DNA from: Microthyrium microscopicum
Lineage: Eukaryota
Assembly (NCBI GenBank): GCA_010405405.1
Contig: MU004236.1
Span: forward strand, 260,576 to 324,575
Direction of reading: 5' to 3'
DNA length: 64,000 bases
Under the pieces are notes generated by a model. It was not told the origin of the DNA. It did no database searches and saw only the letters and a program-made list of their open reading frames with translations. Positions 511 to 54,965 of this stretch are shown here, one piece after another; within the stretch, counting starts at the first letter, position 1, and each line of letters opens with the position of its first letter. Position numbers and translations under genes: made by a program.

Positions 511-1014
511 GTTCTTATTTTTAGTTCTTATTTTTACGTCTATACTTATTTAGTTTTTCTTTTATACTAGAAAACTAACGAAAATTAGCCTAGAAAATAT
601 AGTATTTTTTTCTTATTATAACGTATATTTTTTTATATCTTATTCTTTAGTTATAATTATAATAACTATTAAAGTATAATATTATTCTAAGAATTTATAT
701 TATTAAAATTAAATTTAGATAAGAGAAACTAAATACGCTATTTTATATAGCCTAGTGTTTTCTATAGTATACTAAGTTTATTAAATTAAAATTCTAAGTA
801 TTTACTAGTATTAATAAATAATTAAAAATATAGATTTTTATATTAAATATTTATAATAGTTATAACTATTATTTATACTAAATATAACTACTTATATATA
901 GAACTAGCTATACTAAAGTACATTATATCTTTATAACCTCTTTACTACTACTATAAAATAATATATAGTTACTTTTAAGTAATAAACATTATAAAAAGAT
1001 ATATAACTACTATA

Positions 1015-1236
1015 TGTAAGGAGCTATTAGGCACGATTAGGCAAGCAGAATATAGCTAGTATTATAGGATCTACGTATAAAGAGAGGAGATCTAGAGATA
1101 GAGCTACGGATATAAAGATATAGGGTCTAAAGGATCCTTAAACATACTAACCCTAAATAGGATAAAGAGATCTTATCTATAGGATTAGATCTTTAGATCT
1201 AATACTAAAATACTAAACTTATAAAGATTCCTTATA
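1015..1236 (-). repeat. 3' LTR of element A
   Basis: Direct repeat of 23366-23587; starts TGTAAGG on +; PPT adjacent. Confidence 0.95.
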
Positions 1237-1288
1237 TAACTTCCCCCTTCTAAAATAGACCTTTTAGGCTATTCTAATCTATTTTATT

Positions 1289-1330
1289 CTAGGCTAGGCT
1301 AGGCTAGTCTAGTCTAGTCTAATCTAGTCT
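1289..1330. repeat. Pentamer array (CTAGG/CTAGT)n in the 3' UTR of element A
   Basis: ctaggctaggctaggctagtctagtctagtctaatctagtct; equivalent arrays in B (6751-6797) and C (48401-48440). Confidence 0.85.
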
Positions 1331-1589
1331 ATATAAATACTAAACTCCTTTATATATATTACTACTAAGAGATATATAATATATTATCTACTAACCCTAG
1401 CAACTATTAAAATTTATTAATAAAGGTAAGGATGTCTATTTAAGATAGTCTATAGTGTCTAATAGTCTTAATAGTAGCGTTATTAAAATAAACTAAAAAT
1501 AAGAAGTATAAAACTATAAAAATAAAATACTTTTATGCTATATAATCCTAATCTATAAGTAAATTATTAATATTATAATCTTCTTCTTA

Positions 1590-4500
1590 GTTAAGCTTTA
1601 ATAGCTTCTAAGAGAGATATAGACTTAGTTTATTAAGATATAAATAATAAAACTCTAAGATAGTATTAGATACGTTAAGTACGTTTTACTATAGTTACTA
1701 ACTCTTATTATAATAACTATTCTACTTAATCCTATATTTTAAGACCTTACCTTTACTATAGCCTTCCTATTTACTATTAGTAATAGCGTCTATAAGCTAT
1801 TTCTCTTTTTTGCCTTTAATTTTACTAATAATAGCTAGTAAAGAGTTAACTTTCTTAAGAAGCTTAGCCTTATCGTTAATAGGATATAATAACTAAGCAT
1901 AAAATACTAAATATATTTTTATTAACTTAGGTAGGTCTAATTTATAAGTAATACTATTAATTTTATGAAAGACTTTAAATAGTTCTATACTTTTATTATC
2001 TAGCGTTTTTAAAGGACGTATTATATTATAGTTATAAACATTAAGACGAACCTAATCTCCTAAATAAAGATTAAGCGCTAAATGCTAATACTTATTAGTA
2101 TAGAGCTTTTATTATAACTATACCTATACTAATTATTTCTTTAAGAATTAGTATAACTTCTCTCTACTATCCTAGATATAGTCTACTAAGGTAACTTTCT
2201 TATAAGTTATTATAGATTTGTATAAAGCCTTAAGTAGTAGATAATAAGCTAATTTTAATCCTAATTTTAGTAGGAAACTATTTTAGGCCTTAAATAGTAT
2301 AAAGCCTATAGTAGCGCTTATTACTAAGTTAACTATAAACTTAGTAAAGAGTAATAATAAGGCTTAATTATCTTAGTCCTAGTTAATAAATAAGTATAGG
2401 TACTATTTAAGTATAGTAATTAATATTTCTATAATTCTATCTATTTTAGGATACTAAGCTATACTTAGCTTTAGAGTAATACTAATATATTTATAAAGGT
2501 AGCCCTAAAATACTAATATAAACTAGGTCTCTCTATCTAATAAGATAGAATTTAGCTAACTATAAAGCTTCTAGATATAGTTAATAAACGCTATAACTAT
2601 TATTTTAATTAATAGGTTAAGGAGGGTAATAAATCTCTAAGACTATATAAAGCGATTAACTATAACTATAATATAGTAATAAATAATTCCTTAGTATATA
2701 TATTTTAGTAAGGAGATAGTAAAGTTAATAGAAATATCTAACTAAGTATAATCTAGTAGCAAGAAGGATCTTAATAAACTTTACTTTTTTTAACGTATAG
2801 GTTTAGTAAAGATATAGTAATAGCTCTTAATAAAAGTCTTTACTAACTCTAATATATATAGCTATTAATAGTCTTACTATAAATAGTAATATATTATTAT
2901 AACTCCTCTATATCTTATAACCTTATATTAATAAGCCTACTTTATAGCTTTATAGCGTAAGTAGGTAGTAAAAATAAAGAGCTTTTACTAGTAAAGTACT
3001 ATACTATCTAGTATAGCTTTATAATTTATTAACTTAATATACTCTTAGTTAAGGATATTAAAAAGTAGGAAGTAGTCTTTTTATACTTTAGCTATCTAAA
3101 TTATAATTAATAGTTTATTAACCTTGCTTACTTTTATTACTTCTTTTAAGAACTATTCTAGGGCAAAGTCTAGGAATTCTTTATTAACTAGTAAAGAATT
3201 ATCTAAACTAGCTAGAGCCTTATTCTAAAGGCTTTTCGTAATAAGTTCTAAATATAACTCTTCTATTATAGTAGTATCTAACTTATCTACTATAATTATA
3301 GCTACTTATAAAAGGAATAAGGTAATAGAGTTAATAAGAATTATAGTAAGTTTAACTACTTTTTTTATACTAAACTAGTAAAGAAATAAAAGTAGTTAAT
3401 ATTGCTAAGTAATCTATAGATTATTATTACTTTAAGAAAGATCTTAAGAATATCTTATAAGAGCGTTAGCTTTACTATTAGCTATTCTTAGATGATATTT
3501 AATAAGAAAGTAGAACTATAATAGGAATTTAGCTTATTATATTTAATAGTAAGTAAGCTTCTTTATTTTTATAAATATCTAAAGGTTTTAATAATCTAAG
3601 AAGACCTTAATAACGTCTTCTATACTAAAGAGTTTAGGTTCCTATTCTTTAAAAGCTTAGATAATAGCTAATAGTTCTTTATTATAAATATTATAATTAT
3701 ATTTTATAAGTATTATCTTTTTAGATAGGAACGTAATAAGTTTAAGATTTTTATTAGCGTCCTTTTATAATAACACTACTATATATACCTAATCTAAGGC
3801 ATCTATTTCTATCTAAGTTTCCTTATTATAATTAAAGTAAATAAGAATAGAGGTAGAAGTAAAAGCTTCTTTAAGAGCTTTAAACGCTCTTTTTTTTAGC
3901 CCTTCTAAATCCTATAGAAAGACTATAATAGCGTCTTTTCTTATAAGATTAGTTAATAGCGTTACTATAGCTAAGTAACTAAATATAAAGTAATAATAGA
4001 AATTAGTAAATCTAAGGAACGCCTAAATATTTTTTAAGTACGCTAATTATTCTTATTCTAATATTACTTAAACCTTAGTAGAATCTATTTTAATATCCTT
4101 AGTAGTAATAATTAGACTAAGATATTTAACTTCCTAGACGTAGAATTTAGACTTCTTAATATCTAGAAATAAACCTATACGTTTTAATATATTTAAGATA
4201 AGATAAATATATATATTATATTTCTCTAACGTTTTACTAAAGACTAAGATATTATTAAGATAAATAATAACAAAATTATTAAAGAATTATATTAATACGT
4301 AATTAACGTAAGATTAAAACGTTCCTAGCCTCTCTATAAGACTAAAGAGGAGGACGTTAAATTTAAAGAGGCTATATTAGGTAAGAAAGGCTATTTTATA
4401 CTTATTTCTAGGTTTAATCTAAATTTATTTAAACGCTATAATAACGTTAAATTTTAAGTAGAACTTTATATATATTAAATACGTAAGTATTTTATTAATA

Positions 4501-5500
4501 AGAAAAGAAATATTACTATTCTTAATAGTAATTTTATTAAGTTTATAATAATTAATATAAACTCTAATATTTTTATCTAGCTTACTAACGTAAAGTATTA
4601 ATATAGTATATTAAGACTTAGAAGGCCTTATAAACCTACGTGCTAATAATTACTCTATATACTACTTTACTACTAATACCTACTTTAGAGATATTAAGAT
4701 AGAATAACGTTTTAGTATTTTTACGTCTAGAATAAAGTTAATAGCATAATTAAATTTGCCTTAATATAGTGTAAGAGTATTAGCTTATTTTAGGTTAAAA
4801 ACCTTAAAGTATTATTAGAACTTCTCTAGAATAAGCTTTAGTATTTTCTCTTATAATATATATAGGCTATTCTACTTATTTTGCTATTTAATATAATTCT
4901 CTTTAGAGATAGCGTAAGTAGAGAAATTTATTGCTTCTTTATTATTATTATCCTTATCTATTATTCTATTATCTTTTATTTTTTTAAAATCTTTTAGCTA
5001 AAAGGCGTTAATAATAGCGTCTTTATGCTTTAAAAGCTTCTTAAATACTATAGTAAATATAAACGTAATATCTATATCGTTAAGAAGAGGAAGGTTAATT
5101 ATACGTCCTTTTAGATCTATAAATATTAAGTAACGTAATATAATATAATTAGTAATATATTATATACTACTAAAGGTTAAGATTCTTAATCCCTTATAAA
5201 GATTAACTTTATATTAATCTATTTAAAGCGTTTCTAATATTAAGTCGTATAAGGTAACTTTTATAACGAAATAACTAAGCTATTTAACGTAGTAGCTAAT
5301 ATAGATATTAATAAAGGTAGCCTTATTAACTATAGAAATAGACTTACTATTAGTAAGCTTAATAATTTAAGGTTAAGTAAGGTTAAATATTAGTATACTA
5401 TATTATCTTAGGTAGTAAGGATTAATAATACCTATAGCGCTACTACTTATATTAATTAGGATACCTATATTAGAATATATTTTACTATATAGGACGTAAA
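1590..5500 (-). pseudogene. pol: pol relic of element A (protease-RT-RNase H-integrase-chromodomain)
   Basis: De-RIP'd RT YLDD motif; colinear with pol of elements B and C; ends approximate. Confidence 0.85.
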
Positions 5501-6464
5501 CTTGCTTTACTATAGTTTACTAGGAAGCATTATCGTACTAAAAGATTAATTTCTTAGAATTATTCTATAAAACTATTATTATTAGGTTCATCTCATTAAG
5601 ACTATTACAATAGTATAACTTTTAACTAGACGTAAGTAATAGCTAGCGCTATAGAGATAGATAAAGATTCATAGTAGATAGCTATTATTACTATAGAGGC
5701 CACCTATATCGAAAATAAGGTAATATAGAAATAAAAAGACAACCTAAAACTACTACTTATAGGAGCATAGAGAGGAATTAAAGTACTATTAGAAGGACTT
5801 ATATTTAAAGAAGGAGATTTAATACGACTATTTCTTAACTAGCTAATAGCTAATTTTATATAATACTATACGTCCTTTATTATAATATAAGACTACGTTA
5901 AATAACTAGTATTCTACTTAGCTCTAACTATAAATAGGGCCCCTTTGTTAACGCGCTTTAAGACGCGTCTTAACTAAAAACTTAATATAATTATAAAGTA
6001 GATTACTAAGATTAAAATAACTCTTAACTCCTAAGCAAAGGTTATAAAAGGACCTAACCTACTAATCTCTAACCAAAGGGCCCTCTTTATAAGCTTAATA
6101 GTCTAAATTAATATTATAAAAGTAGTTAAAAATATATTAGAAGAAGATAAATAGGATAGAGTAAAGCTATTTAAAAAGATTAAGAAAACTATCCTATAGG
6201 TAATAGCTATTAGGCTACTACTTAGTAAGAACGTTAATATTATAGTTAATATATAATTAGATAAGGACTATATCTAAAATAGGCTACGCTAGATAGGCTT
6301 AAATAAAGTCTAGGTCCTATAATAAGACTATTTAATAAAGATCCTAGGGGCTCTACTTAAACTAGATATAGCTTATAATAAGAATATAGATAATAGTAAA
6401 CTAATTAAAGAACTAGTTAATAGAAATAAGATAAAGTTTAAACGCCTAAAGATAAGAGTAGTCT

Positions 6465-6692
6465 TGTGAGGATCCAACGGGCACGTAATTAAGCAAAGGG
6501 TAGATAATATTTAACGATTTAGCGTATAAAGGGAGAGAGAGAGGTAGAGTAGAATCTACGCTAAGGGAAGAAGAGAGTAATGCTTAGTAAATCCTTAGAG
6601 ATGCTAGCCCTAATTAGGACTAGCGCTGTTAAATCTTTGTAAAGATCTAGCTTAATACTAAAGCTATTATGCTTTAGCGAGGAATCCTTATA
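6465..6692 (-). repeat. 3' LTR of element B
   Basis: Direct repeat of 14005-14232; TGTGAGG start on +. Confidence 0.95.
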
Positions 6693-9600
6693 TTACTCTC
6701 TCCTTTAAAACTAGCGCTCTAAGCTACGTTCTAACCTATGCTATCTTATTCTAGGCTAGGCTAGGCTAGTCTAGTCTAGTCTAGTCTAATCTAATCTACT
6801 TTATATCTAATAAAGTGCTATCTATGCTCTTTCGCTATTTTACTATCTTCTAGCCTATTAAGGCAACTATCTAGGCATTAACGAACCTAGATATCCTTAG
6901 AATACTCTAGTTTATGGCGCTAATGAGGCGCTAATAGTAGCGTACTATAAATAAATAAATACTTTTATTCCTTTAACTAGTCGTCTAATAAACTATTACT
7001 ATTATAGTTAGTAGAGTTAGATATGTTAGGTCTAATAATGGGTGGTGATTACTTAGGGTTAGGGCTAGGCTTCGTGGGATTACGTTTATAGAAGTTATAG
7101 ATTAAGTCTGCTACGTTCTTAAGGTCTTTCTATAGCTGCTATAAAGGCGTATTATAACTTGTCTATTTTATAAGGTATTCTAACTTCTTATAAGTACTCT
7201 TTTTATAGTAGCTATTAAGGATCTTATTAACTTACTATTCTTTTTCTTCTAGTGCTTTACTTACTACTACTAGTAGAGGGTTATGCTAACGTAGAAGCTC
7301 TATATCGTCTATAATAGTATATAGTAACTAAACGTGAAATATAAAGTGTATCTTTATATACTTTAGTAGGTTAAGTTTAAATATAATAGCGTTAAGCTTC
7401 TTTAGGATGCGGAAAGGCCCTACGCTTTTACTATTAAGGGTTTTAGACGCGTATATTATATAGTAGTTTTAAATATCTAGACGTACCTAGTTTTTAAGTT
7501 AAAGATCTAGTACTATACGTTAGTGCTTATTAGCTTATTTAGCTTATTATGCTTATGCCTACGTTAGCTATTCTATAAGATAATTATATATATCTTTATA
7601 GCTTTCCTATATCTTGTTAGTATCTTTCTATTCTTATTAAGCTAAAGAGGAGGAGTATTAGTATAGTGCTAGTGCTTAGTAAGCTAATTTAAGTCTAGAT
7701 TTAGGGAGGAAGCTATATTAGATCTTAAAGGGAGTAAAGCTTATTATTATACTAATAGTAAAGTTAATAGTAAATTCTATGAATAGTAGTAACTAGACCT
7801 AATTATTTTAATTTTAGTTAATAAAAGCGTGAAGATATTGCTTAAGTACTAATATTAAGATCTCTATAATCCTATTAGTTTATAGGTGTTATATAGTGCT
7901 TAGCTATAGTACTGTGCCTACTTAATTATATAATCGTTTTTAAAACGCTAAAGTAAACTGTGACCCTCTATCTAATAGGATTGTTTTTAGCTACCTAGTT
8001 AATTTCTAGACTTAATCTATAAATATAAGAACTATTATTTCTACGAAGAGGTTAGATAGAAGGATAAAGCGTTATTAGTAGGTATATTAGTTTATAATAA
8101 CTATAACGTAATAAAAAGTAATACCTAAATAGGTATACTAAGGTAAAGAGATAATAAAGTTAATTAAGATATCTAATTATGCTCATTCTAGTAAAGGGAA
8201 GGCCTAAAGAAGTTCTTGCTTTTTCTAGCGAATTAGTTTAGTAAAGATATATTTATATTCTAAAACGTACTTCTTTATATCCTATAATATATGTAGCTAC
8301 TAGTAATCTTGCTAGAGCTAGTAATAAGTAGTTACTAAGCTTCTATAACCTATAACTTTATAGCGATAGGTATATATTATAGTGTGATAACGAAGTCTAC
8401 CTTTAAGTATTAAAATATATTGGTAATAAAGGACTAGATCCTTCGCTAAGATTATATAGTTACTAAGCTTAATATCCTAACGTTCTAAGATACTAAAAGA
8501 AAGATATAATAATCCTTCTTACTTAGCATAGTGAATAGTATTTAGTAATGTATTATCTTTACCTACTTTTATTATCTCTATTAGAAACTAATTAACGTTA
8601 AAATCTAGGGATTTATTAAGCTCTAAGAAGTTGCCCTTAGGCGTATTCTTAGGCTAGTCCTTATTACTAAGGTCTACTGTTATAGGGTCTTCTAATAACT
8701 CTTCTACTTTAGTAGGGAAATTTAACTTATTTATAATAATGGTAGTAATCTATATAAGAGATAACGTAATAAGTTTAACTAGTAGGCGTGCTATCTTAAT
8801 TATATACGTAGTATTAAACTAGTAAAGAAAAAGTAGAGAATATACTTAGTGCTAAATACGTAGGTTATTATTGCTTTAAAGAAGATCTTAAGAGCGCTAA
8901 GTTAGTACGTCTACTTTTCTATTAGCTAGTCTAAGACGATATACGATCTTAAAGTAGAACTATAATAGAAATTCCGCCTAGCGTACTTAATGGCGTAATA
9001 GCTTTTTAGTAGTTATAAACGTCTATAGATTTTAATAATTAAAGAATACTTTAATAAGATTATCTATAGAGAATAGCTCTAGTTCCTATTCCTTAAAAGC
9101 GTGTATAATTATAAGAAGCTCTTTATTATAAATATTATAGTTATACTTAGCTAGAAATATCTTCTTAGATAGGAACGCTATAAGATATAGATCTTTATTA
9201 TTATCCTTTTAAGACAATACTCCTATATATACCTAGTCTAATGTATTAGTTTTAAGCTAGGTCTCCTTAGTATAGTTAAAGTGTTTTAAAATAGGTGCTA
9301 TTATAAACGTCTTCTTTAGTTTATTAAATGCCTAGTCCTTAAGACTTCTAACATCCTATAGGAAGATAGTTATAACGTCCTTCTTTATTAAAGCTATAAG
9401 AGGTATAGCAATTTCTAAGTATCCTTATATAAAATAATAATAAAAGTTAGTAAAACTAAGGAAAGCTTAGACGTCTTTTATATATAATAGTTATTTCTAT
9501 TCTAATACTAATTCTATCTTTGCTAGGTCTATCTTAATACCTTCTATAGTAATAATTAGCCTTAGATATTTTACTTCTATAGTAGTAAACTCTGATTTAC

Positions 9601-12600
9601 GAATATTAAGATATAAACTAGCTTTCTCTAGCTTATTAAGTACTAAGTATATATGAGTTATGTATTCTTTATATATCTTGCTAAAAATAAGAATATTGTC
9701 TATATAGACTATAATAAAGTTGTTAAGATACTTTATTAGGACGTAGTTAATGTATGCTTAAAAGGTACTAAGAGCGCTTATTAATCTAAAAGGTATAATA
9801 ATAAACTTATAGAGACTATATCGTATAGAGAAGGCTATTTTATACTTATCCTTAGGTTTAATTCGTATTTACTTGTAGGTTATAATAACGTTGAATTTGC
9901 TATAGTACTATGTATAATATAGCTTTACTAAAGTATTAGGAAGTAGCGGTAGTATGTTCTTATTCTTATAAGAGATTTCGTTAAGACCTTAATAATTAAT
10001 ATAGACTTAAATACCTCCTTTAAGTTTATGTGTATATAATATAGGTACTATAAAGTGTAATTTTAAAGGGCGTATAAAGCTTTTTCTTAGTAAACCTTCT
10101 AGATACTATTTAATAATGATATTCTGTTTTGGGTTTATACTAGTACTACGTTATTTAGGCATAGTAGCGTCTAATATAAGATTAATAGAATAATTAAAAC
10201 CTAGGTAGTAGGGTAGTAATTTGTCTACTTTTTATAAGTTAAAGACTTTAAGATAGTAGTAAAACTCTTCTAAGATTATCTTATAAAGTTCTTCGTAAGT
10301 AAGATAAGGTTGTTTATACTTCTCTTGCTATTTCTTAAAGTTATGCTCTAAGATAGTAAATAAGTTAATTACTACGTTATTTATAAAGAAGATTAGGTCT
10401 AATATTCCTAAGAGATTAAATGGTTCTAGTTCCTTTATTAAAGAGCTCTTTAGTAAAGGGCTATCTAGTGGTTTCTTTTCTTTAGGCTTAGTAAAGTCCT
10501 TAAGATAGAGAACTTCTACTTTCTATCCTTTTTACTTTACTAATATTACTATAATATATATAAATATAACTACTACTTCTTTATCTTTAGGAAGTTTTGT
10601 AACGAAATTATATTAACTATAAGTATTAACTTTAATAAGGCGCCGTATTAAAATATAGTTATAAAGGTAATGATAAGAGTTAAACGTAATAGTCTTCTCT
10701 CTCTCTCTTAAGTATACCTTATAAAGTTAGATCTAAGGGTTACTAAGAATAAGATTATAAGTAGCTACTTCTATAATAAAATAATACATTTGTTTAATAT
10801 AACTCTTAATATATATAGTAACTAGTACGGCTTTATTAATTTTAATAATAGTCTTCTTATTTATAAGCTCTACTAAACGTAGTTAATTAAGCTATATTTT
10901 TAGTATATTATACTATTTAATAAAGTAGGTATAGATAATTCTAAGTGTGCTATTACTAGTATTAATTAGTACGTTATATTTCTTAAAGGCGTTAGCCTCT
11001 AGAATTAATATACTCCTAACTATTATTTATTATAGCCCTATGAAAGGCATATAGTTGACGTTATTTAGTAGTAGCTATCCTAGATTAATTGTTGCTATGG
11101 ATAGTTAAATAATATAATATACTTTTAGTAGTAGATTTAGGTTGGCTTACTAAGCTTCTAGCTCTTAAATCCTATCTTAAATCTAGCCTAACTTACGCTT
11201 CTTTTACTAATTATATGCTTCTTATAGGTTTAGCTCCTCCTTGCGTTAATAAGGTAGAGCGTTTAGTTTAAATGCTTGCGTAAGTACGCGCTAAGCATCT
11301 CTACTTATAAAGCATTTATAATAATAGTAAGCATTACTAAGACTTTTAGTTAGATTTTATTATCTATTAAGTAAGTCTTCTATCTATAGGGAGCATCCTT
11401 TTATCCTAAGGTATAGCCTTTCTTACTATATTTAGGGTACCTATTTTATACTTATAAGGCTAGGAAGATATTATTAAGGTAGCGTAGACATTTGCTATTA
11501 TTCTAACTATTATTATTATAGGCGCCTCTATTCTAATTCCCTAAATTATTAGTTAAGTTATTATTATTAGCGCTACCACTATTAGAGTTATTAGTATTAG
11601 AATTATTATTATTATTTTACTTTAAGAAGTTTAGGTCTTACTCTACGTTGTATAGATATATATAGAGCTCTAAGTAGGTTTTAATGTTGCGTTCTATTAA
11701 AAGGCGAATAAATTATCTTAAGAGAAGTAAGCGTAGTTTAGTAACTTTATTATGATCCTCTAAGTCTATGTCTTTAGTCTTTTCTAAAAAGTGGCCTAAG
11801 AATTCTATTAGGTCTTCTATAGTTTTTATCTTAGCGTCTACTAAATAGAGCTATTACTTCGTAACATTATATCTATTTATTACTTTATTATAAGCATCTA
11901 GGTCCTTCTATATATTATTAATAGTAAGGTAAGGGCTTATAGAGTTATAGCCTAAGCAACGTAATATTAAAGACTATGCTAGATTATTTAGGTTATTATG
12001 AATGAACTAAATCTTCTTCTTATTAGTTAGGTAAAACTAAGTATCTTCTTTTAGAACGTCTAATACCTAATCCTTCTATTAATAGTATTTGCTCTTATCT
12101 TTGCCGTTATACTATTTAATTATATAATAAGGTTAACTAATATATAGAGTAGTATTATTTAAGGGGTTAGACCCTACTTCTAAGAAAGGTAATGCAAAAC
12201 GCGTTTATATTAGGTTAGGTTAAGTAACTATGGGTTAATATAGTATATTACTAAGTAATTTAGCGTCTTCTTTGTCTTCTAGGTATATGAAAGCTAGTAT
12301 ATTATAAAGTTTTATAAAGGTTAGAAGATTTTATATCTACTACTCTATGGTATAAAGATATTAAGTAAGGGATTTATTTTTGGTATTAAGGTTCGTAATA
12401 GTAGTATTCTGAAGTTATATCTACTCGCAATATTTTTAGAGTTATTTTATATAATATGCTAACTTTGCTTTTATAAAAGTAGCGTGGTTTTCTACTACCT
12501 AAATGTTATACTATAGTTAATAATAATTAGAGGTAAGTTTGTAGTAATTAATTATGCTAATCTAAAGTTTTTTAACTTCTAAGAAGAGCTTATCTACTTC

Positions 12601-14004
12601 TGTCTTGTAGTTAGCTATAGAGCCTTTTAAGTTATTAACTTTGTTTATAAGATCCTAGATTTCTTTTAAGGATTTAGCTATTTAGATATTACTCTTTTAT
12701 AGTTTATCGTGATAAAATTAGTAGCGTACTACTATAGCTTAGTTTATGGCTAAGGTAGTATAAAGTTAATTAAATAAGAGCTAAGGATCTTTCTATATAA
12801 CTTCTTACTTTAGCTCTTAAGCGTTGTAAATTAGATAGTAATCTTTAAATACTCTAATAGTAGGATTAGGTTCTTTCTAATAGAATAGTAGTGATGGGTT
12901 TAAGAAACCTTCTAGTATAGCTACTTTTAAATCTTTATATGCTTATATTTAGAGAGGGCTTTAGAAGACTTAAAAGGATATAATATATAAAGCATTATTA
13001 ACTACTAGGTAGTTGTTCTAGAAAGCTAGAGGGACCTCCTTATGGCTATTATTCTTAAGCTATATGTCTTATAACTAGACTAATATAGTAGGATAGATTC
13101 TTTTAAATATTTTTCCTTCCTTTACGCCTTGCACATCCTTACGGAAAGCTAAAGGTGTTACTAGAGCGACTAGCACTAAGGGCGTAGTAAACGCTATAGT
13201 TTTAATTAGTTATAGGAGTTTACTATTAGGCGCGCGCTAAGCAAGTAGCAGGATTAGCTTTTAGTTTACTTAACTATAAGTAGATAGATTAGAGAGTAAG
13301 AGGTTATTATCTTTATTAGAATTAATATAAGATAGCTAGCGCTTACTCTTTTCTTATTAAGAGGTCTAAATAATAGCTTACGTAGAGTCCTACGTATTTA
13401 TTACTACTTTCTTTATAAATAAGCCTTTAGGATCTTAATCTTAATAGTAGCTAATAACTAACGTATAGTGGCTCTAAGAAGGGCTTAGAACTGTTTTGTT
13501 TTAGCATTAAGGAGATATGAACTATAATTAAGAGCAAGTAGTTATATTAAGGCCTAGAGGCGCTAAGAAAGGAAACTCTTTAAGAGGGTCTATGGTTTTA
13601 TTAATAGGTAGTTACGTAAGGGTAATAACGAATAATAATAATTAGATAATTTCTTAATTACTAGGGATAGATAAATTAATAGATTAAGGGTAATTAGAAT
13701 ATAGGTTAGTAGTATAGAAAAGCGAAAGAGTGAAGGTTCTACATAGCTAAGTAAAGAGGTTCTAAGAGCTTAGACTACTGTAAGATCTAGGTATTTATGT
13801 TAAATACCTTATAAAGATAATTAATTAGTATTTTAGAAGGTAGTAAAGATATGCTACCTAACTATATTAAGGAGTCTATAAGTAAGAACGCGCATAAGCT
13901 ATCTCTTAAGTATAGGTCCTAAAATTTAGGAGCGCTAATCCCTAAGGATAAATATGCAAATAATTTTAAAATTAATTTTTTAGTTTAATAAGTATACTAG
14001 ATTA

Positions 14005-14232
14005 TATAAGGATCTAATAGGTATGTAATTAAGTAAAGGGTAGATAATATTTAATGATCTAGCGTATGAAGGGAGAGAGAGAGGTAGAGTAGAATCTATA
14101 CTAAGAGAAGAAGAGGGTGATGCTTGGTAAATCCTTAGAGATACTAGCCCTAATTGGGACTAGCGCCGCCAGATCTTTGTAAAGATCTAGCTTAATACTA
14201 AAGCTATTATGCTTTAGCGAGGAATTCTTATA
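14005..14232 (-). repeat. 5' LTR of element B
   Basis: Direct repeat of 6465-6692; differences are mostly transitions. Confidence 0.95.
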
Positions 14233-15029
14233 AGTCTAGTAGCTCTATAAAGGCGCAAAGTATAAATAGATAAAAGAAGAACTAGAAAAGTATAGAAAAG
14301 TATGTACTAAGGAATTACTTATACTATACTACTTAATAATAGTAATAAGAGATAAGGTTATCTAGAAAAAGTTTATTATTAGGGTAAAGAAGCTCTTTAC
14401 TAAATTATATAACTTAAAATATATTACTAAATAGTACTTTTATTACTAAGTCTAGGGCTATATATAAATAGCTTATATTTAGTATAAACTAAATTATAAT
14501 AAATATATAAGTAATTATAATATTAGGGACTATACTAGAATAAGCCTAGTTTAATACTCTAACTATAAAGATAATAAGAGAGAAAGAAAGAAAAAGAAAA
14601 AGTAAGGCTAAGAATACTACGTATAGTAAAAGAATATATATAAAGTATACTAAACCTACTTTAAAAGTATAAAAAGATTCTAGGTAGTAAATAAAAAATA
14701 TATAAAATAAATAAAAGCTATAATACTTACTTAAATTATACTAATCTAGCTTATAGATAATAATAGATATACTATAGTAAATAGTATAAAGAAAAGAAAA
14801 GTAGAGACTAAGAACCTTAGAAAACTATTAATATTATAAGAAGTAAAGAATAAGATACGTAATAACTTAGTCTAGGGTACTTAGAGATTAATTATAAGTA
14901 TATTTAACTTTAATAGAGGTAATAATAGCTTATAAACTATAAGAGATAGCGCCCTAGAAGACTAATAAGAGAATAACTATAGGAGAGCAAGATAAGCTAT
15001 AGATAACCCTAAGCTAACCTTTAGTAATA

Positions 15030-18000
15030 AAATAAGCAGAATCTAAATAATAAACTTAAATAAATAGTATTAATATTATATAATATAACTATAAGAAGTT
15101 AAATAGAAGGAAAGTAAGGCTATTCTTTAATTTACTAAATAATACTAAGTAACTAATTATAGCAGTCTAAGACTCTAAAGGAATTATAAAGCTAAGGAAG
15201 ATATACTACCTCCTTAGCTACGCTCTAGTATACAACTAGGACAATTAATTAAGAGTATACTTTATAATAAGTAAGGCGCTTAATATAAGGGACTAGTAAG
15301 TAAGATATTATAACTAATTTATCTTAATACTACGCCTCTAACGTAAGTATATAATACTAATAATTATTAATATATATAGTAAAGGCCTAATAGTAAGTAA
15401 CTATAACTATATTACTAAACGCCTAATACTAATAAAGATAATTAATAAGGTAAAAGGAGAGATCCTATTAATAGAAGACTTTAACTACTACTATTATTAA
15501 TAAGGAGGCGTAGTATTAGCTACTAAACTCTAAGCAAATACCTTATTCTATAATATAATCTAATAGGGACTCTACCTAGGTATACTAGAAAGAGAGCTAA
15601 CCTATAAGTTGCGTAAGGAAAGAGAAGTAAGAGTAGTAGAGATAATAATTAACCTTACGTTTATATCCTAATTCCTTTAAGAAAGACTAGAGTTCTATAG
15701 CCTAGTTAATACCTAAATACTAATAGAAGATTATGTCCTAGTACTAATTTAGCTTACTCTAAGATAAGAGAAGTATATACTAAAAGTATAATATAATATA
15801 TAAAAACTAAATATAAAATAATTTATTAAATACGTAAATAATAGCTTATAAGATACTAAAGACATACTAATAGAGGCTCTATATAGGGTAATAATAAAAA
15901 TACTAGAGATTTACTACCTAAAAGTAAAACCCTTAAAGTAAGCTTTATATAGGTAGTTACCTATAACTATCCTATTAATATAAAGAAAGTACTATATAAG
16001 AAGAAGATACTTTTAGATAAAGAATAACTAAGATAAGTATATATATAAATTAGTTATAGTCTAGCTAAGAAAATCTCTATACTAGAATAAAGTAGTATTC
16101 TAGTAAACCTTTATAGAAGAAATTATAAAGAATTATAAGCGCTATAAGAATTAAGGCCTATAAAGAATAAGTAAGTAGATAAGAGCTAAAGCTAGCAAAC
16201 TAAAAAAAGACCTATATCTACTAGCACTTAGATAGATAACTAGTAATAACTATACTTATAATAACTAAGGTAAAGTAGATATACTATTTATAAAGTTCTT
16301 CTCTTAAACTAGAGTAGTAGACCTAAGTAATATAGAGGATACTATCCTACTCCTAGAACTAAAAATAGACTATAAGGTAATAATAAAAGAAATAGATTAC
16401 ATAATTAATAGCCTTCTAAATTATAAGGTAATAAAACCTATTAATATACTAAATAAGGTCCTAAAGGCTCTTAGACTTAAGGCGTAGCCTAAAAAGAAGA
16501 GTAATAATCTAAAACTAATAAAATTTAGTAAAAGACTAGTACCTATAATTAGTAAAATACTAATAAATAGTATAATCCTAAAATACTTAAAGCAATCCTA
16601 TATACTAGTACTAAAAAAGCTAAGTAAGAAAGACTACTTGCTACTATTAGCCTACTAGCTAATTACCTTTAAGAATACTATAGTAAAGTTAATTAAAAAG
16701 ATTATTACTAATAGACTTACTTAACTTATAGAAGATAATAACTTACTACCTTAAAACTAGATAAAGACTAAGGTAGAGTAGTTAATACTAATAGCAGTAT
16801 AGCTCCTAAGGAGTACTATTAAAGTAGTATAAAAAGGAAACATAAGAGCTATAGTATTAGTACTTAGCCTTAACCTTTAAGGAGCGTATAATAATATTAA
16901 TTTAAGGAGACTTCTTTATATCCTAGAGATAAAGGAAGTTCCCTAGTAGCTAATTAATATAGTAGTAAGCTTTATTACTAATTATATAACCTAAATTATA
17001 TTTACTAGGCACTAAAGCTTAGTAATAATAACTAATATAAAGATCCTCTAAAGATTTTCTCTTTTACCTATCCTCTTCTTCTTCTTTATATTAGAACTAC
17101 TAGAATACTTCTAGGACGTAAGTAATAATATCTTTAGATTTAAGTTTATAAATAATATTATATTAGTTATATAGGGCAATACTACTTAAGAGAACTATAT
17201 AAGACTAGAAAAGGCTTACTAGAAGTATACTAACTAGGTAAATAGATATAGCGTAAAGTTTATCCTTAATAAGTACTAAGTAATATACTTTACTTAGAAT
17301 ATCTATTACCTAAAAGTAGACTTATAATCTATAGTAATAGTAGATAATATATTTACTAAGCTTATGTTAGAGAGTATTAAGGTACTAAGTATATAAGTAG
17401 ATAGAAGAATAAACTAGAAAGACTATATTAAAAAGACTAGAATTAAAGGATTTAAGTAAGTAGTAGTACTTTTAAGAATAGTATAGTTAGGATAGAGACT
17501 AGTCTTTAGAAAAATAAAGCTTCTTTATATAGTAGTTATTAGGCTAACCCTTATATATAGAGTATAAGTATAAGGTCTAAGATTACTATTCTCTAAGGCG
17601 CTAAAGGATTATTATAAACTACTAGTAGTAGTTTAGAATAATATATTCTATAAGATAATAAGAAAGTATTAAAGAACTTCTATTACTTTATTAAATAAAG
17701 AAATAAGAATTAAACTACTCTAGATAAATACTATAGTTTTAGTAGAGGAATATACTAATAAGAATAAAGACTTAATAATAATATAAAAGATAAGTAAAAT
17801 TATTACTAAAGTATACTAAGTAAACTTCTTAAGAAACTAGAGAATACCTCCCTAATAGTAATAACTAAGAAGCCTAGTAATACTTAAACTAGTATAAATA
17901 CGTATAACTAAGGTTATAACTTAGAGAGTTAATATACTAAAGTAATAAAAGAAGAGATTAGAAATAAAGCAAAAGTAGGATACTAACTATAAGTAAGTAA

Positions 18001-18560
18001 TATAATTAATAAATAGTGTATTATAGAAGAAGAAAGAGGTAAAAACTAAACTAGAGCTAGAGATATCTTTAATTAGAGTATATTACTATAAGCTCTAAAT
18101 AAATACTTAGGTATAGCTTATAAGAATATAGTAATATACTACTATAGTGTAGAGAATATTATAAAGTAACTAACTAATTAAGCTTTATAATAGTTTTAAT
18201 AAAGTATAAGTAATAGTACTCTTCCTTATATAATTAAAAGTTATTAGACTTAATAACTAGCTATATAATATATAGGTACTAATAGTCTCTCTACTATAGT
18301 ACCTATATAGTTACTAGTAATAAATAGTTTACTATATATTACTAAACTACTTATAATATTATAGAAAAAGATTGCTAGAATAAGTAATAATACTAAATAA
18401 GGCCTATATACTCTCTAATCTAAGGAATACCTAGGTAGTAGCTAAATAGCTACTAAAGAGTAGAGCTCTTTAGTAATTTAGGCTAACTAAAAAGATTATA
18501 AAAATAAACCTTAAGGCGTATAGAGAACTACTAAGACTTAAGGATCTTATAAATAACTAA
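15030..18560 (+). pseudogene. LINE ORF2 relic (APE endonuclease, reverse transcriptase, C-terminal Cys/His knuckle)
   Basis: De-RIP'd motifs: IIAVQDP (~15156), GDFNxHH (~15473), KPGKKDYS..AYRPITL (~16617), GIPQGSPLSPILF (~17040), FVDD (~17146), CPCG...HILLNC (~18300). Confidence 0.9.
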
Positions 18561-18639
18561 CTATAATACTATAGTACTAATAAGCTAGTAATATATAATT
18601 ATAAAAGAAATAACTAAGTCTAAAAACATAATTAATTTT

Positions 18640-19560
18640 ATTCTATATCTATCTACTACTCTTTATTAAATAATAATACTACCCTACTTAATAACTAGGA
18701 TATTTCTACTAATAAATTTATCTTTACGTTTTAAGTATAAAGCTTTAGCAAGATAGCTTATAAATAAGCTAAATTAGTAGCTAGTATAGCTATATTAATC
18801 TTTAGCTTCTTCTTCTTCTACTATGCTAGTAAGGCTATAGTAAAAGCAAACTAGGCCCTATAGCTAGTAAACTTATCTATTAAATCCTCTATAACCTCTA
18901 CCTACTTAGTAGCCTTCTTATCTATACTTAATAATATATACTCCTTAATACCTTAATAGGAATTAACTAGGTTAGTTATTACCTTATTAAAGGCGTATTA
19001 AAGGCGCTTACCTTACTTTTTTAACTCTACTAGTACTTTACTATAATATTAAAAAAGGTAGAAGATTAAGAGTAAGGATATACTTATAGCCTTATACTTA
19101 GAACGTTACTCTTTATAATAAGAATAAGGACGCTAGCTAAGGCTAGCCTAATTATAAATATAGGTAATTACTATAGTAAGTATACTAAAACTAATTAGGT
19201 ACTTATTATTAAGTAACTCTACGTAATAGTATAATACTTAAAGATAATATAAATAAATTCTTATGCTAGGGGCGTATATAGTCTATATTATAATAGTTAA
19301 TACTATATATAAAAGAATACTAAAAGACTTACGATAGGAGCTAGGATAGAATTAGCTAATTTTATATTTAAAGATAAAGTAGTATTTTTAATATTTATAG
19401 ATGAAGTAGTTTTTACCTTCTTTAAAAATAATAAAAAAGGGATACTTATAGGCGTAGGACGTTTACTAAGTACTTAAAGATAAGAGAAAGAGGGAAGAGA
19501 AGAGCCTATAAAGGACTTACCCTTAAAAGAAGAATTAGAGAGAGTAAGAGGTATAATAAA
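18640..19560 (-). pseudogene. Antisense multi-intron passenger gene relic in the LINE 3' region
   Basis: Minus-strand GTAAGT donors at 19520 and 19332. Branch/acceptor GCTAAT..TAG ending 19341. 8-nt micro-exon 19340-19333. Introns 19332-19283 (50 nt) and 19087-19041 (47 nt). Last exon ~130 codons with only TAA/TAG stops. Confidence 0.65.
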
Positions 19561-20559
19561 AACTTAGAAAGGAAGAAGTAACTAAAACTATATAGATTTA
19601 AGATACTTTATACTCTAGAGGTAGACTATATAAACTACTAGAAACTTAAAGGCTACTATTTAGTAGCCTATTATGTAATATTAAAGAGCATAGATTAATA
19701 AGAAAAACTTAGTTAAAAGATATTATAAGTACCTTACTTAATAGGCATTAAAAAAGAGGGCTTAATATAGCTAAGGGACGCTATAATACTAGAGCTTATT
19801 AAGGGTAAAAATTAATTATAAAAACTTAAGAATATGTATTATATACGCCTATTATAAAACTATATAGAAAGTTAACTATATAAGGATAATAGCTATAAGC
19901 CTCTAAGAAGGAGAAGATTAATAAAAACTTATTAAACTATAATAGTAAAACTTAATAATAAGGTAATACTAAATAGAAATAGGCGCTAAAAAGCTAGATC
20001 TAACTTATCCTAAGGGACGCTATAGCTTTAAGTAATTAGGTAATAGATAAGCCCTAAAAGGAAAACTAGTAATAGGGATAGTATTAAGGATTAAGATCTT
20101 AGCGCGTAGTATAGAATCTATATAATATATAGTATACTTAAGCTATATAGGGCCCCTAGTAGTTAGTAACTACCTATTACCTACTATATTAACTTACTAA
20201 CTAGAATTTCTTTAATAAGCTTTATAGTTTATAGAGAGATAATATAAGTCCTTCTATTTAGAAGTAGTAGACTAAGAGGGTGTTATAATAATACTAAAAC
20301 GAGGCTGCTAAAAGGCAACTAAAGGAACACTATAGGTTTCCCTATAGGAGGTTTTTCTAAAAGTAAGAGTAGCGTCTACATAGCTCATTAGTATAGCTAA
20401 AAGACAATAAACAAGATTCATTATTATAGTTTACTAGGATTTAATAATAGGGTCTTTCTTTTTAATATTCTTTAGCTATACTATAAGTATAATAAAAGCT
20501 AGTAATATATAAATAGCTTAAAAGTATACTAGTATAACGTAGCCTTTATAGACTACTTT

Positions 20560-23050
20560 TTTATATTTAAGGCGCTTAATATAATAATATAAATATCTAA
20601 TAATAACCTCTTTATTCTTATAAAAAGTCTTCTTAGCTTTTTACTTATTAGTTTTAATATTAAGTAGTTAAGTATTAGGTTAGTTATTCTAACGTTTCTT
20701 TTGTTTATTTTGCGCTTTATTCTTATTTAGCTTCTCTTTATAGCTTAGTAAAGAAGTATCTAGTTTAATAGATAGTAGTTATCTTTATCTTAAGTTTCCT
20801 TAATAAAGGACTATTAACCTTAACGTACGTACGTAAATACTATAGCTAATTAAGTAACCTTAGCTTTAATCTTTTAATTAGATAATAATTCTTAACCCTT
20901 ATAAGATAGGTTCTTAGTATTAGTATAATGTCCTTTTTTACTATAATAAATATAACGTTTCTTAGCCTTTAGTACTTAGAATATATTTAGGAGTTAAGAA
21001 ATATTATTATTTTTAGCGTTAATATTATTTTCTTAATTAAAAGATTAATTATTTTTTTAACGTAAGTTATTCTAATATAGGTTACTATTATTTAAATTTA
21101 CGTTAATATTTAGTTTATAGTTAATATAATAACTAACATTATAAAGTTAGGTATAAAAGGTAGTAAAGTCTTTAATATTATAAGTTACTAAGGGATTTAT
21201 AAACTTTTTTAGAATTAGATCTTTAAGTTTAATAATCTTTTTACGTTCGTTAAGTTCTATATCTATAAAGTTAGCTTTAAATTATCCTAGGAACCCTTAA
21301 AGAGTCTTAGAATCTTTTATCTTAGCTTTAGGTAACTTTAACTAAGCTTTAGTATCCTTAAAACCGTTTTTAGAATAGAAATAGCTATCTAGATTAGCCT
21401 ATATCTTATTTATATACTTATATAAATTCTTTAATTCTTTACCTTCTTAAATAATAGTAAGATTATAGGTAGTATTAATAAGGCGTTAGTAAATAAACTT
21501 AATCTTTTTCTTTTTTATTAGGATATATAAATATGCCTTATTATTAAGTAGAATATTAAGTATCTTCTCTTTCTATATCTTATACTTAGTTATATTAATT
21601 TTAGTAAAGTTACTAAGTTTCTTAAAATAAAGGTAACTACCTATTATGCTTATAGTAGTTAATAATAGAGTTAGATATTATATACCTATAGGTTAGATAT
21701 TACTTAATACTACTAAACGTATAGAATTTAATATATAATAACTTAAAATAGCGTTATTTTCTAAATCTTTATAATTAATATAAAGAGGTAGTACTATAAT
21801 TAATACTACTTATAGCTATTTTTCTAATTTAGTAATTTTAGTACGTAGTAAGCTAACTAATTCTTAATATTAAAGGTTAGTAGCTTGTTTAGTCTCTAGC
21901 TTTATAATAGCCTATTATTTAGACTAGCGTGCTATATTTAATTTAATAGCATAATTATATTATAACTAATTAATATAGGCTTAAACGTCCTTTATTAAAC
22001 GTTATTAATCTATAGCTTTATTCTATAAGGTTTTAAATAACTTCTTAAGACAAGCTATATTAAAGTTTAATTCTAGAAAATTCTTTATAATAATATCCTA
22101 TACTAATCTTAAAGACTAATAGTAGAGAGCTATAGTCTATAATATTACTAACATAGTATAAAGTTATTTAAAGAAATCTTTAGGATAGCTAAACTTAATA
22201 TAATAGTATAAGAAATCTTTCTCTTTAATAGTAAGGTATTAATTCTATACTAGGTTTAATAAGTTTACTTCATCTTAGTAAATTACTAATACTTATTTCT
22301 CTTATTTTAGTTTAATTCTATATAAGGCCTATATAAATAAAGGCTTATCTACTACTAATAAAGCAACATTATAGTTTAGGTTTATAAATATAATAGGTAA
22401 ATAAGAAAGAAATCCTAAAGGGACGTTTAGAAGGTTAGGTTAACTAAGTAGTAAATCTAACTAGAGTTATATATCTTTTAGAAGATATGCTTTATTATTA
22501 TCTAACGCTTTTACTATACGTTCTTTTTTTTTAATTACTTTTACTACAAAAGGGCTAGCAATCTAGGTAATACTAGAGGTTAATACCTCTTTCTTTAATC
22601 CTAGCTCTTTTATTAATACTATAATAAGTACTACTTTAGAAGCTTTCTCTACTTCCTAAATATCTATAGCGTTCTAATATAGGAATTTAGCGTCTTTATT
22701 ATTAGAGGGTCTTTTATCTTTTTTAAGTATTAGAAGAAGTTTAATAGTATCTTAAACCTTAAGTAGTTTATATTAAAGGATTAACTATAAGGTTAATATC
22801 TAATTAGCTTCTATATCTAATATAACTAACGTAGCCTTTAAGAAGCGTCTATATAAGTTATAAAAAGGTAGAGAACGCTCTAGTAAATAAGATTATAAGT
22901 ACTTATATTTAAGATAGAGAAAATAAGGCAACGTACTATAATTAGCACGCTAGTTATTCTTATAATCTATAATAATATTATTTTTATCGTTATTAGAACT
23001 AATCTAATAGAATAATAAATATTTTTAGATAAGGAATAGAGTATATATAA
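20560..23050 (-). pseudogene. gag: gag relic of element A
   Basis: Lies between the 5' LTR and the LINE insertion; colinear with the gag region of element C (~41550-44000); ends approximate. Confidence 0.75.
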
Positions 23051-23365
23051 GTAGATAGTAAGTAGAGAGAATATAGAAACGCTTCTATAGATTATTAATA
23101 GAAGAACATAATAGAGTAAATACTTTAACTACTTTATACTCTTTATTTTAGTAAACGATACTAAAAAGGCGCTTATTTAATTAGGTATTTATAGCTTTGC
23201 TAGTACCTTCTATAAGAATCTAAATAGCGCTAATTCTAACTAAGAATAGTACTATTAATTTATTATTATTATTTAGTAGATTTAAGTATAACTTTAGCTA
23301 GTAATAATCTAGTAATATATAATAAACACATAGAGTTATTTTTTAGTATAAAGGTATATAAATTA

Positions 23366-23587
23366 TATAAGGAGCTATTAGGCACGATTAGGTAAGTAAA
23401 ATATAGCTAGTATTATAGGATCTATATATAAAGAGAAGAGATCTAGAGATAAAGCTATAAATGCAAAGATATAGGGCCTAAGGGATCCTTAGACACACTA
23501 ACCCTAAACGGGATAAAGAGATCTTATCTATAGGATTAGATCTCTAGATTTAATACCAAAACACTAAACCTATAAGGATTCCTTACA
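23366..23587 (-). repeat. 5' LTR of element A
   Basis: Direct repeat of 1015-1236; ends CCTTACA on +. Confidence 0.95.
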
Positions 23588-23681
23588 CTATAAATAGTTA
23601 ATTATAAACTAAAACTAACTTACTAGCTTATAATAGCTATATTTATTAGTATAATATAGTATAAATATTATCTTATTCTCT

Positions 23682-23756
23682 NNNNNNNNNNNNNNNNNNN
23701 NNNNNNNNNNNNNNNNNNNNNNNNNNNNNNNNNNNNNNNNNNNNNNNNNNNNNNNN
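23682..23756. other. Assembly gap (75 N)
   Basis: Run of N. Confidence 1.
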
Positions 23757-38403: not shown

Positions 38404-38896
38404 CAAAGGATAAAATAGCTCACGCTTTATCCCTTTTAAGCGTCGAAAGGTTAGTAGTAAGTCGATAACTTACTTTAGTATATTTTTACTATATTAATAC
38501 CTAAATTATTTAAGAATCATTTCCTCTTAGGACTATACGGCTAGTACTATAGTTAAATACAAGTACGGAAGCGCATTATAGCCTACTTAGTAATATTAAG
38601 AAAAACTAAAAACTAAAGATTAGTATATAAATAGATCTATATAAATAATTTTATTTTATTTCTAAAATATATATTTTAATTATTTCTAATATAATATTAT
38701 AAAACTTATATTTTTAACTTTCTTTTAGCTTTTTTAAAAATACTTTTAAAGTACTTTTAGTTAATAATATTTACTATATTATAACTATAAAATAAAAATT
38801 ACTTTTTAGTAAAAGTATATTTAAGAAATTAAAAAGAAGAATTTTCTTTTATTAATTTAGTAGAAGCTCTACTATATTAGTAGCTTACTTTATTAT

Positions 38897-39256
38897 TATT
38901 AGGAATTAAATCTAACGAACTCTCTAAGATAGGCATTATAGCCTAAGTGCTTTAGCCTAATAGCTATTAGAAGCTAGTAGAGCTACTTCTTTAGCTTTAG
39001 TATATTCTATAGTTAAGAGAACTAATAAGTTCCTAACTATTATAATTAGTAGCTAAGCGTATTTCTAAGGTATCTTAGCTTATAAATAAACTACTCTAGC
39101 TTAAAGAGAAACCTTAGAGGTTCCTAAGTAATAAGATAAAGGCTAAGGAATTTCCTAGTAATTCTTTAATAATTACTCCTATTCCTATTTCTATATACCT
39201 AATCTATTAAGTATCTTATAATCTTCTTATTTACTCTATAACCTTAATCTTTAATA
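38897..39256 (+). repeat. 5' LTR of element D
   Basis: Direct repeat of 54966-55325. Confidence 0.93.
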
Positions 39257-40998: not shown

Positions 40999-41221
40999 TG
41001 TAAGGAATCCTTACAGGTTTAGTATTGTAGTGTTTAGATGCTAAGATCTAATCCTATAGATAAGATCTCTTTATCCCATTTAGGGTTAGTATGTCTAAGA
41101 ATATCCTAGGCTCCTACTTCTTTATATCTATAGCTATATCTCTAGATCTCTTCTCTCTATACTTAGATCCTACAATACTAGCTACTTTCTACTTACCTAT
41201 TACGCCTATTAGCTCCTTATA
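40999..41221 (+). repeat. 5' LTR of element C
   Basis: TGTAAGG start; direct repeat of 48495-48717. Confidence 0.95.
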
Positions 41222-48494: not shown

Positions 48495-48717
48495 TATAAG
48501 GAATCCTTATAGGTTTAGTATTATAGTATTTAGATACTAAGATCTAATCCTATAGATAAGATCTTTTTATCCTATTTAGGGTTAGTATGTCTAAGGATAT
48601 CCTAGGCTCCTACTTCTTTATATCCGTAGCTATATCTCTAGATCTCTTCTTTCTATACTTAGATCCTATAATACTAGCTACTTTCTGCTTACTTATCGCG
48701 CCCATTAGCTCCTCATA
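48495..48717 (+). repeat. 3' LTR of element C
   Basis: Direct repeat of 40999-41221; preceded by a purine tract. Confidence 0.95.
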
Positions 48718-54560: not shown

Positions 54561-54965
54561 TATTAAAAAAAGCTTTAATATTAATCCTTACTATAAGTAA
54601 AGATTCTAAAGAAGGAAGTTACTTTTAGTAAGTAATAACTTATAGATTAAGTAGACTTAAGGTAATAGCCTAAGGAAACTTAAAAACGTCTAAGTCTCTA
54701 ATAAACTTAGATAAACCTAAATAAGTACCTAATAATAATATTTAGCTTTATAAATTATTATTTAAGGAGTACTCTTTTAAGTAATATTTAAAACTAATAA
54801 TAAGTTTACTAAGATTTACTAAGATTATTATCTAACTAGCTAGATAGTAGCTAAGTAGTTTATATTATTATAATATAATATATTCTAAAGTATATTAGTA
54901 CTATTAGAATATAGTTAATCTTTTAGAGACTTATAAGGACGTTTAGATCCTTATTAAGGAGATAA

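Follow-up and report, generated by a model that had tools for sequence, protein, structure and literature searches.

The region 18640-19560 of the window, the whole stretch of 64,000 nucleotides of Microthyrium microscopicum DNA that was analysed, is probably the 3' portion of a full-length, RIP-inactivated LINE whose long 3' region is the family's own and holds no demonstrable gene. For routine repeat annotation the region is a dead LINE nested among LTR elements in a RIP-degraded, AT-rich block. A functional antisense gene, which a sequence-only reading had proposed here, appears to be absent. The features of the element and its surroundings are given below in window coordinates.

5511-5525, no strand: left TSD copy of the LINE, TATAGTTTACTAGGA, an exact repeat of 20424-20438, within LTR element A, where the homology of element A to element B breaks off
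5526-6464, plus strand: 5' part of the LINE, comprising the 5' end and the beginning of ORF1, degraded by RIP and bounded by the TSD and by nested element C
6465-14232, plus strand: nested LTR retrotransposon C, an insertion within the LINE and foreign to it, with its own LTRs and its own TSD
14238-15059, plus strand: rest of ORF1 and inter-ORF stretch of the LINE, ahead of the point where ORF2 begins to align to relatives
15060-18560, plus strand: ORF2, with endonuclease, reverse transcriptase and C-terminal Cys/His motif, riddled with RIP stops, placed by library matches, profile and codon model
18561-20423, plus strand: 3' region of the LINE (the "extension", here the tail), 1.86 kb, RIP-degraded, without ORF2-like coding in any frame, within the TSD and repeated like the LINE body
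18650-19072, minus strand: candidate coding-like stretch (the "last exon" of the sequence-only reading), weak and unproven, seen in skew, periodicity and codon-model margin
19283-19560, minus strand: leader, GTAAGT "donors" at 19520 and 19332, 8-nt micro-exon and 50-nt "intron" of the same reading, the motifs being there at background frequency
20364-20420, plus strand: last 57 nt of the LINE, which recur within an abundant sequence whose flanks differ and have normal G+C (X6, X1 and X3 contigs)
20407-20412, plus strand: AATAAA, 11 nt before the 3' end, read directly
20424-20438, no strand: right TSD copy of the LINE, TATAGTTTACTAGGA, an exact 15-mer at which LTR element A resumes

The AT-rich blocks of the window comprise positions 1-24000 and 38500-55000 and have a G+C content of about 0.2-0.25, against about 0.47 in the genic blocks. 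The RIP signature of this AT-rich DNA is extreme: TpA/ApT is 1.87 in the LINE body and tail and 0.75 in the genic block, and (CpA+TpG)/(ApC+GpT) is 0.06-0.12 and 1.30, respectively. For the tail by itself (18561-20423) the two indices are 1.87 and 0.12. The AT-rich blocks are stacks of nested elements.

Self-comparison of the window places LTR element A in two parts, 992 to about 5510 and about 20424 to 23590, its LTRs being 992-1234 and 23347-23585; LTR element B (40998-48717) is its homologue on the other strand. The LINE sits in element A with an exact 15-bp TSD, TATAGTTTACTAGGA at 5511-5525 and 20424-20438, in keeping with APE-type LINEs, whose insertions have a TSD of variable length and no terminal repeats. 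It is itself interrupted by element C, whose LTRs (about 6465-6692 and 14004-14232) are 90% alike and whose own TSD is the 5-bp AGTCT at 6460-6464 and 14233-14237. Other copies in the source organism run from ...AGATAAGAGT directly into 14233 without element C (7 contigs, with a loose end at 14233). Because TSDs can be read at both the A/LINE and the C/LINE junctions, the element is delimited as 5526-6464 plus 14238-20423, a full-length, RIP-destroyed non-LTR retrotransposon of 7125 bp. The frame with the fewest stops starts at 5528 in the 5' part (25 stops in 313 codons) and at 14234 in the region of the rest of ORF1 (23 in 242 codons). Self-BLASTN gave no second copy of the LINE or of its tail within the window. 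The LINE has no poly(A) tail, its last letters being ...GATTCATTAT.

The sequence-only reading had followed the element past ORF2 as far as 20419, with element A resuming thereafter and ATTATTA as the TSD. The continuation is confirmed with an end at about 20423, and homology to element A does restart directly after that point; the proposed TSD was wrong, the true one being the exact 15-mer. The 5' part at 5526-6464, set off by nested element C, had been missed.

ORF2 lies on the plus strand, its frame having position mod 3 = 0, and stops with TAA at 18558-18560. An exhaustive protein library search with ORF2 returned 1213 matches at E<=1e-3, the best of which was P0001 (E=7e-87, 29% identity). 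The relatives found are metagenome proteins, the closest of them 1104-1196 aa in length. ORF2 matched a profile of 10 intact relatives with E=1.4e-128 over profile positions 4-1111; the match covers residues 56-1212 of a 1220-residue reading from 14901 and ends 8 codons before 18560. In Pfam, both Exo_endo_phos_2 and RVT_1 were found in the closest relatives, 8/8 in one scan and 10/10 in another. The N-terminal apurinic-like endonuclease expected of an APE-type LINE is thus present, with ORF2 aligned from profile position 4 and Exo_endo_phos_2 in every profile member, and the library matches together with RVT_1 establish the reverse transcriptase domain. The alignment passes through the C-terminal Cys/His motif to the ends of the relatives and includes columns that set FxDD against FINN and PQGSPLSP against RFSLLP. 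Since the ends of the intact relatives align to the window frame, ORF2 is placed at about 15060-18560, in agreement with the end near 18560 given before. On held-out sequence, the codon model chose the ORF2 frame in 9/9 blocks. Likeness to the ORF2 profile was sought in the six frames of 18561-20423 and was not found, all scores being negative.

Three further searches were blind to the RIPped ORF2 copy. Pfam, run in six frames with X at stops, returned 0 families in 13000-20700 or in five sub-stretches, the true reverse transcriptase included; a word-indexed protein search with ORF2 left 0/8000 scored candidates at E<=0.01; and phmmer of ORF2 against PDB produced only one spurious 10-bit match.

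The element had been called Tad-like. This label was not confirmed, because RNase_H was found in 0/10 closest relatives of ORF2, even at E<=1, while an RNase H domain is present in the published Tad-clade LINE RtPc5. In the profile, the window's ORF2 can be aligned over its whole length with its 10 relatives, the part from the reverse transcriptase thumb to the C-terminal Cys/His motif being gap-rich and of low conservation.

The 1.86 kb after ORF2 are the 3' region of the LINE family itself. They lie inside the 15-bp TSD and were therefore inserted together with the LINE. Family coverage was assessed with Logan contigs from two runs (X1 and X3) of one sample of the source organism, matched at >=80% likeness. 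This gave 3413 contig pieces in X3 and 3755 in X1, with 30/30 bins covered; 24 of about 7280 pieces were seen individually. Depth in X3 was of similar magnitude in tail bins (8,227-16,980) and in bins wholly inside ORF2 (4,595-13,799), contig depth not being equal to copy number. Transitions account for nearly all differences in X3 (C>T 337, G>A 483, A>G 302, T>C 213), which is the expectation among RIPped copies. Run X5, which is differently labelled, as a second organism, has pieces at 18311-18605, 18641-18875, 18909-19300 and 20237-20418, the first of them a 295-nt record that crosses the ORF2 stop with 7 differences. Among the loose ends listed (21 of 365), none lies between 14233 and 20222, and the known LTR/LINE junction at 14232/14233 appears as a loose end in 5-7 contigs. 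The tail is thus repeated throughout the family, and the earlier suggestion that the ~1.85 kb after ORF2 belong to the LINE and are not a one-off holds: the tail lies inside the TSD, all bins are covered, X5 has pieces of it, and no internal boundary occurs among the loose ends listed.

It is extremely improbable that the 1.86 kb are an independent high-copy repeat beside or inside the LINE copy, either a separate element or a later nested insertion. The nested-element stacks of these AT-rich blocks would suit such a repeat, yet the TSD encloses LINE and tail as one insertion. The Logan contigs are only about 300 nt long and no single record reaches from ORF2 to the 3' end, which also leaves room for a separate repeat; the X5 record nevertheless spans the ORF2 stop, and no internal cluster, unlike at 14232/14233, is present among the loose ends listed. 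In X3, some tail bins are deeper (up to 16,980) than most ORF2 bins, but an increase in depth towards the 3' end is expected of 5'-truncated LINE copies. The last 57 nt turn up again elsewhere with an end at 20420, the pattern of a short 5'-truncated copy: a 1514-nt contig of X6 (depth 732) matches the LINE only at 20364-20420, and X1 and X3 contigs share its upstream flank at these 57 nt. At position 20385, the alternative letter C has a depth of 31627 in X3.

Within the tail, a tRNA scan found 0 tRNAs, and the 5 Rfam rows obtained were all far under gathering scores. Repeats inside the tail were limited to short, low-identity pairs. The six frames of the tail gave only composition-driven weak matches to the rest of the window by tblastn with composition statistics off, and 0 matches to 80 loci.

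The length of the tail was compared with that in a related intact LINE family, represented by 46 copies on metagenome contigs (loci L010-L080), of which 35 with more than 300 bases of flank were followed; in the remaining 11 the sequence ends before similarity could be followed. The ORF2 of this family has the same architecture and length as that of the window LINE; in tblastn it is 32-42% identical to P0001 over query residues 1-1097 and 27-34% identical to the window's RIPped ORF2. Similarity between copies ends 300-360 nt past the end of the ORF2 match in 33/35 loci followed, the exceptions being 237 nt (L074) and 0 (L042), and an (AAT)n tail closes the copies of this family. The family's 3' region thus measures only about 0.25-0.3 kb, which leaves no room for passenger sequence, against 1.86 kb in the window LINE. 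By this comparison, the 3' region of the window LINE is unusual, at about six times the length of that in the related intact family.

The sequence-only reading had filled the tail with an antisense multi-intron passenger gene. The cues on which it was built are where they were said to be, but as gene signals they occur at background frequency and have no weight. On the minus strand, GTAAGT begins at 19520 and 19332. The 50-nt interval 19332-19283 closes with TAG, as does the 47-nt interval 19087-19041, which opens with ATAAGT, so that a de-RIP edit is needed for a donor. Over 130 codons, the KVLVELKK... frame, which begins at 19039, meets 12 stops, each of them TAA or TAG. What was read as a pyrimidine-rich "leader" is a GA-rich tract at about 19470-19560 seen from the other strand, and the part of this tract at 19479-19502 differs by indels among copies (8 of the 12 indel differences listed).

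Background frequencies were taken from the AT-rich DNA of the window. There, 43 of 9753 stop triplets (0.4%) are TGA and the other 99.6% are TAA or TAG, so that any frame shows "only TAA/TAG stops". When 130-codon windows were drawn at random, 29% of the 6114 had no more than 12 stops; over the same length, the true ORF2 frame has 12.4 on average. Background rates per kb per strand are 0.6-0.8 for exact GTAAGT and 2.6-2.7 for [AG]TAAGT; the minus strand of the tail has 3 of the former versus about 1.2-1.5 expected and 9 of the latter versus about 4.8-5.0 expected. TAG "acceptors" are found everywhere in this AT-rich DNA. In a run presumed to be RNA, 2 pieces matched, neither of them in 18561-20363. 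What was read as an antisense multi-intron gene was put together from motifs of which RIP produces many. It is not supported: its cues are at background in RIPped DNA, it requires an 8-nt micro-exon and a de-RIP donor edit, and the coding tests are inconsistent. In RIPped DNA, stops that are all TAA or TAG, GTAAGT donors and short TAG-ended introns are without evidential weight, and the case serves as a caution.

It is distinctly improbable that the family bears an antisense passenger coding unit in its 3' region, either multi-intron or a single ORF of about 125-140 codons (19072-18650), RIP-destroyed in this copy. The promoter of such a unit would lie within the final ~850-1300 bp, and any introns would survive retrotransposition because they are unspliceable from the sense transcript. 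The tail, being family-wide and far longer than that of relatives, needs some explanation, and a passenger unit would be one. GC skew is -0.15 to -0.31 over about 18500-19100, where GC and AT skew invert locally, as such a unit would have it. With a codon model trained on ORF2, the frame 18651-19040 on the minus strand, precisely the one claimed, scores 5.6 bits and 24.4 bits over the next frame (p~0.006 against an order-2 Markov null). This fits a passenger unit, but as a maximal segment score the candidate reaches 15 bits, matched by four other tail frames (with a same-strand background, five tail frames reach 15-19 bits) and lower than what frames known to be false reach opposite ORF2 (25-46 bits). 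A training-free test of 3-periodicity likewise favours the unit, with p=0.005 at 18653-19042; this test segment, 1 of 15 in the tail, was picked post hoc, and the value becomes about 0.07 when corrected over the 15. Under a 9-parameter position model, the candidate scores -4.9 at best, with a margin of 12.1 and a null probability of about 0.11 per window, and 3/12 tail windows pass versus 1.3-1.5 expected (P about 0.17-0.19). The stop density of the candidate (12 per 130 codons) is the same as that of the true ORF2 frame, which fits a passenger unit, but splice and stop cues are at chance, the micro-exon and the ATAAGT donor have to be accepted, and the upstream "exons" sit where the plus strand, not the minus strand, resembles the sense strand. 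Antisense spliced transcripts are known from the LINE TART (PMC1636488) and count in favour of the unit.

The coding-like signal of 18650-19072 is therefore weak and is lost under simpler nulls. By the codon model, some plus-strand windows of the tail (19601-19990) are equally coding-like, so that the tail may contain degraded coding remnants. The candidate minus-strand ORF gave no Pfam family at E<=10, and the word-indexed search gave 11 word-sharing candidates with 0 at E<=0.1; both searches miss the true ORF2 too, and the missing homologue of the candidate therefore says little. The stronger proposition, that before RIP the family carried a real antisense gene, no smaller than an ORF of about 125-140 codons (19072-18650) and perhaps extended upstream by spliced exons, and that the LINE machinery spread it to thousands of copies, is very doubtful. 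If true, the antisense ORF would show a LINE ferrying an intron-bearing gene, for which the present evidence leaves a small chance, and with such a passenger gene fungi would have their first described antisense cargo gene on a LINE.

The limited extent of the skew inversion and periodicity, about 500 bp, also bears on another origin, in which part of the tail (about 18560-19230) would be a fragment of another transposon or of a host gene, captured in reverse by a master copy and propagated as non-functional cargo. An old coding frame in such a fragment would yield weak periodicity. This account is unlikely. In its favour, one X1 contig links 18564 to 19230, omitting 665 bp, although the joint has 22 letters on its shorter side, a class that is often spurious. 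Relatives are without any such region, which is in keeping with capture; on the other hand, the direct repeat that would flank the segment (18532-18556 and 19232-19256) is at chance, with an alignment score of 79 versus a null of 68 +/- 14. The segment has no likeness to the rest of the window or to the 80 loci, and no match to the LINE ORF2 profile.

For the preferred reading, a long 3' region that is the LINE family's own, the following history is proposed. Target-primed reverse transcription would have placed the LINE, one unit of 7.1 kb, in an LTR element and left the 15-bp duplication; a second LTR element would later have split the LINE. The 1.86-kb tail would have been copied at every retrotransposition, because reverse transcription begins at the 3' end (about 20420-20423). 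The extra sequence of the tail was most likely taken up by a master copy, which may have acquired it by read-through or 3' transduction, by template switching or through an old nested insertion, and part of it (about 18500-19100) may sit in reverse orientation. The 1.86-kb 3' region is a concrete case for how LINEs acquire and retain 3' sequence.

Among known systems, 3' transduction by L1 shows how a LINE can acquire sequence from downstream of its 3' end. Such events are usually unique or confined to one lineage, whereas the tail of the window LINE is family-wide. L1 ORF0 is a precedent for a small antisense ORF in a LINE and lies in the 5' UTR, whereas the candidate of the window lies in the 3' region. 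TART has a long 3' UTR.

The fungal non-LTR retrotransposon LINE-Tad-like-RtPc5 of Paracoccidioides, a member of the Tad clade, resembles the window LINE in having two ORFs on one strand and an ORF2 with an N-terminal endonuclease and a reverse transcriptase (PMC4427930). RtPc5 is 5905 bp long, its two ORFs encode 572 and 1312 aa, and it has both an RNase H domain and a poly(A) region, so that almost no UTR is left. The window LINE differs from RtPc5 as it is described there in its 7125 bp, in the 1.86 kb after ORF2, in having no poly(A) and in the RNase H found in 0/10 of its closest relatives. The nearest precedent for LINE-borne antisense introns is the telomeric LINE TART of Drosophila, for which antisense transcripts with multiple introns were demonstrated by RACE and ESTs (PMC1636488); the abstract of that paper claims no protein-coding passenger gene. 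TART belongs to another clade and to another host kingdom, and its antisense introns were established on transcripts, whereas the antisense "introns" of the window are read from the sequence.

The interval 992-23590 of the window contains three levels of nesting, with LTR element C lying within the LINE and the LINE within LTR element A. The features are as follows.

992-23590, LTR retrotransposon, element A, outermost level.
5526-20423 including element C, plus strand, RIP-inactivated LINE with a 15-bp TSD, middle level, within element A.
6465-14232, LTR retrotransposon, element C, with TSD AGTCT, innermost, within the LINE.
40998-48717, element B, a homologue of element A on the opposite strand.

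A run of 75 N beginning at position 23682, shortly past the 3' LTR of element A, is an assembly gap within the AT-rich block.

ORF2 of the LINE ends near position 18560 and is followed by a 1.86-kb 3' region. Within this region, small indels between copies of the family are concentrated in the GA-rich tract at 19479-19502, which accounts for 8 of the 12 indel rows among those listed. Read on the minus strand, the same tract is the CT-rich leader of the antisense gene proposed by the sequence-only reading. That reading also suggested a like architecture, a 3' extension bearing an antisense gene, for a Gypsy element of the window (intervals 992-5510, 20439-23346 and 40998-48717); since RIPped DNA yields such cues by chance, this suggestion would call for equal caution.

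An abundant sequence, whose flanks have a normal G+C content and do not resemble the window, also contains the final 57 nt of the LINE (20364-20420). A contig of 1514 nt and depth 732 from sequencing run X6 matches the window at 20364-20420 only, and the flank upstream of this match is common to the X6 contig and to runs X1 and X3, which represent one sample of the source organism. At position 20385 the alternative letter C was found at a depth of 31627 in X3. The abundant sequence may represent a LINE copy, 5'-truncated and very short, that lies in a high-copy locus; alternatively, it may be a non-autonomous element that has the tail of the LINE in common.

Among the library proteins that match the LINE ORF2 best per residue are P0064 and P0101, with 42-45% identity. 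Judged by their reverse transcriptase motifs, with changes of the D-to-N type, both look RIP-mutated themselves; gene callers have therefore turned degraded copies of fungal LINEs in metagenome assemblies into predicted proteins. A further relative, P0153 (1150 aa, in the cluster of P0010), carries endonuclease and reverse transcriptase, and its record assigns it to a Verrucomicrobia MAG as a hypothetical protein; its 4.6-kb contig is more likely a eukaryotic LINE contamination of the MAG bin.

A related, intact LINE family is present in dozens of copies at the metagenome loci L010-L080 (e.g. L041:6001-9720), located in two metagenome contig sets on contigs of up to 172 kb, which have the look of large eukaryotic, probably fungal, contigs. 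This family has an ORF2 of approximately 1120 aa, a 3' region of approximately 0.3 kb and an (AAT)n tail.
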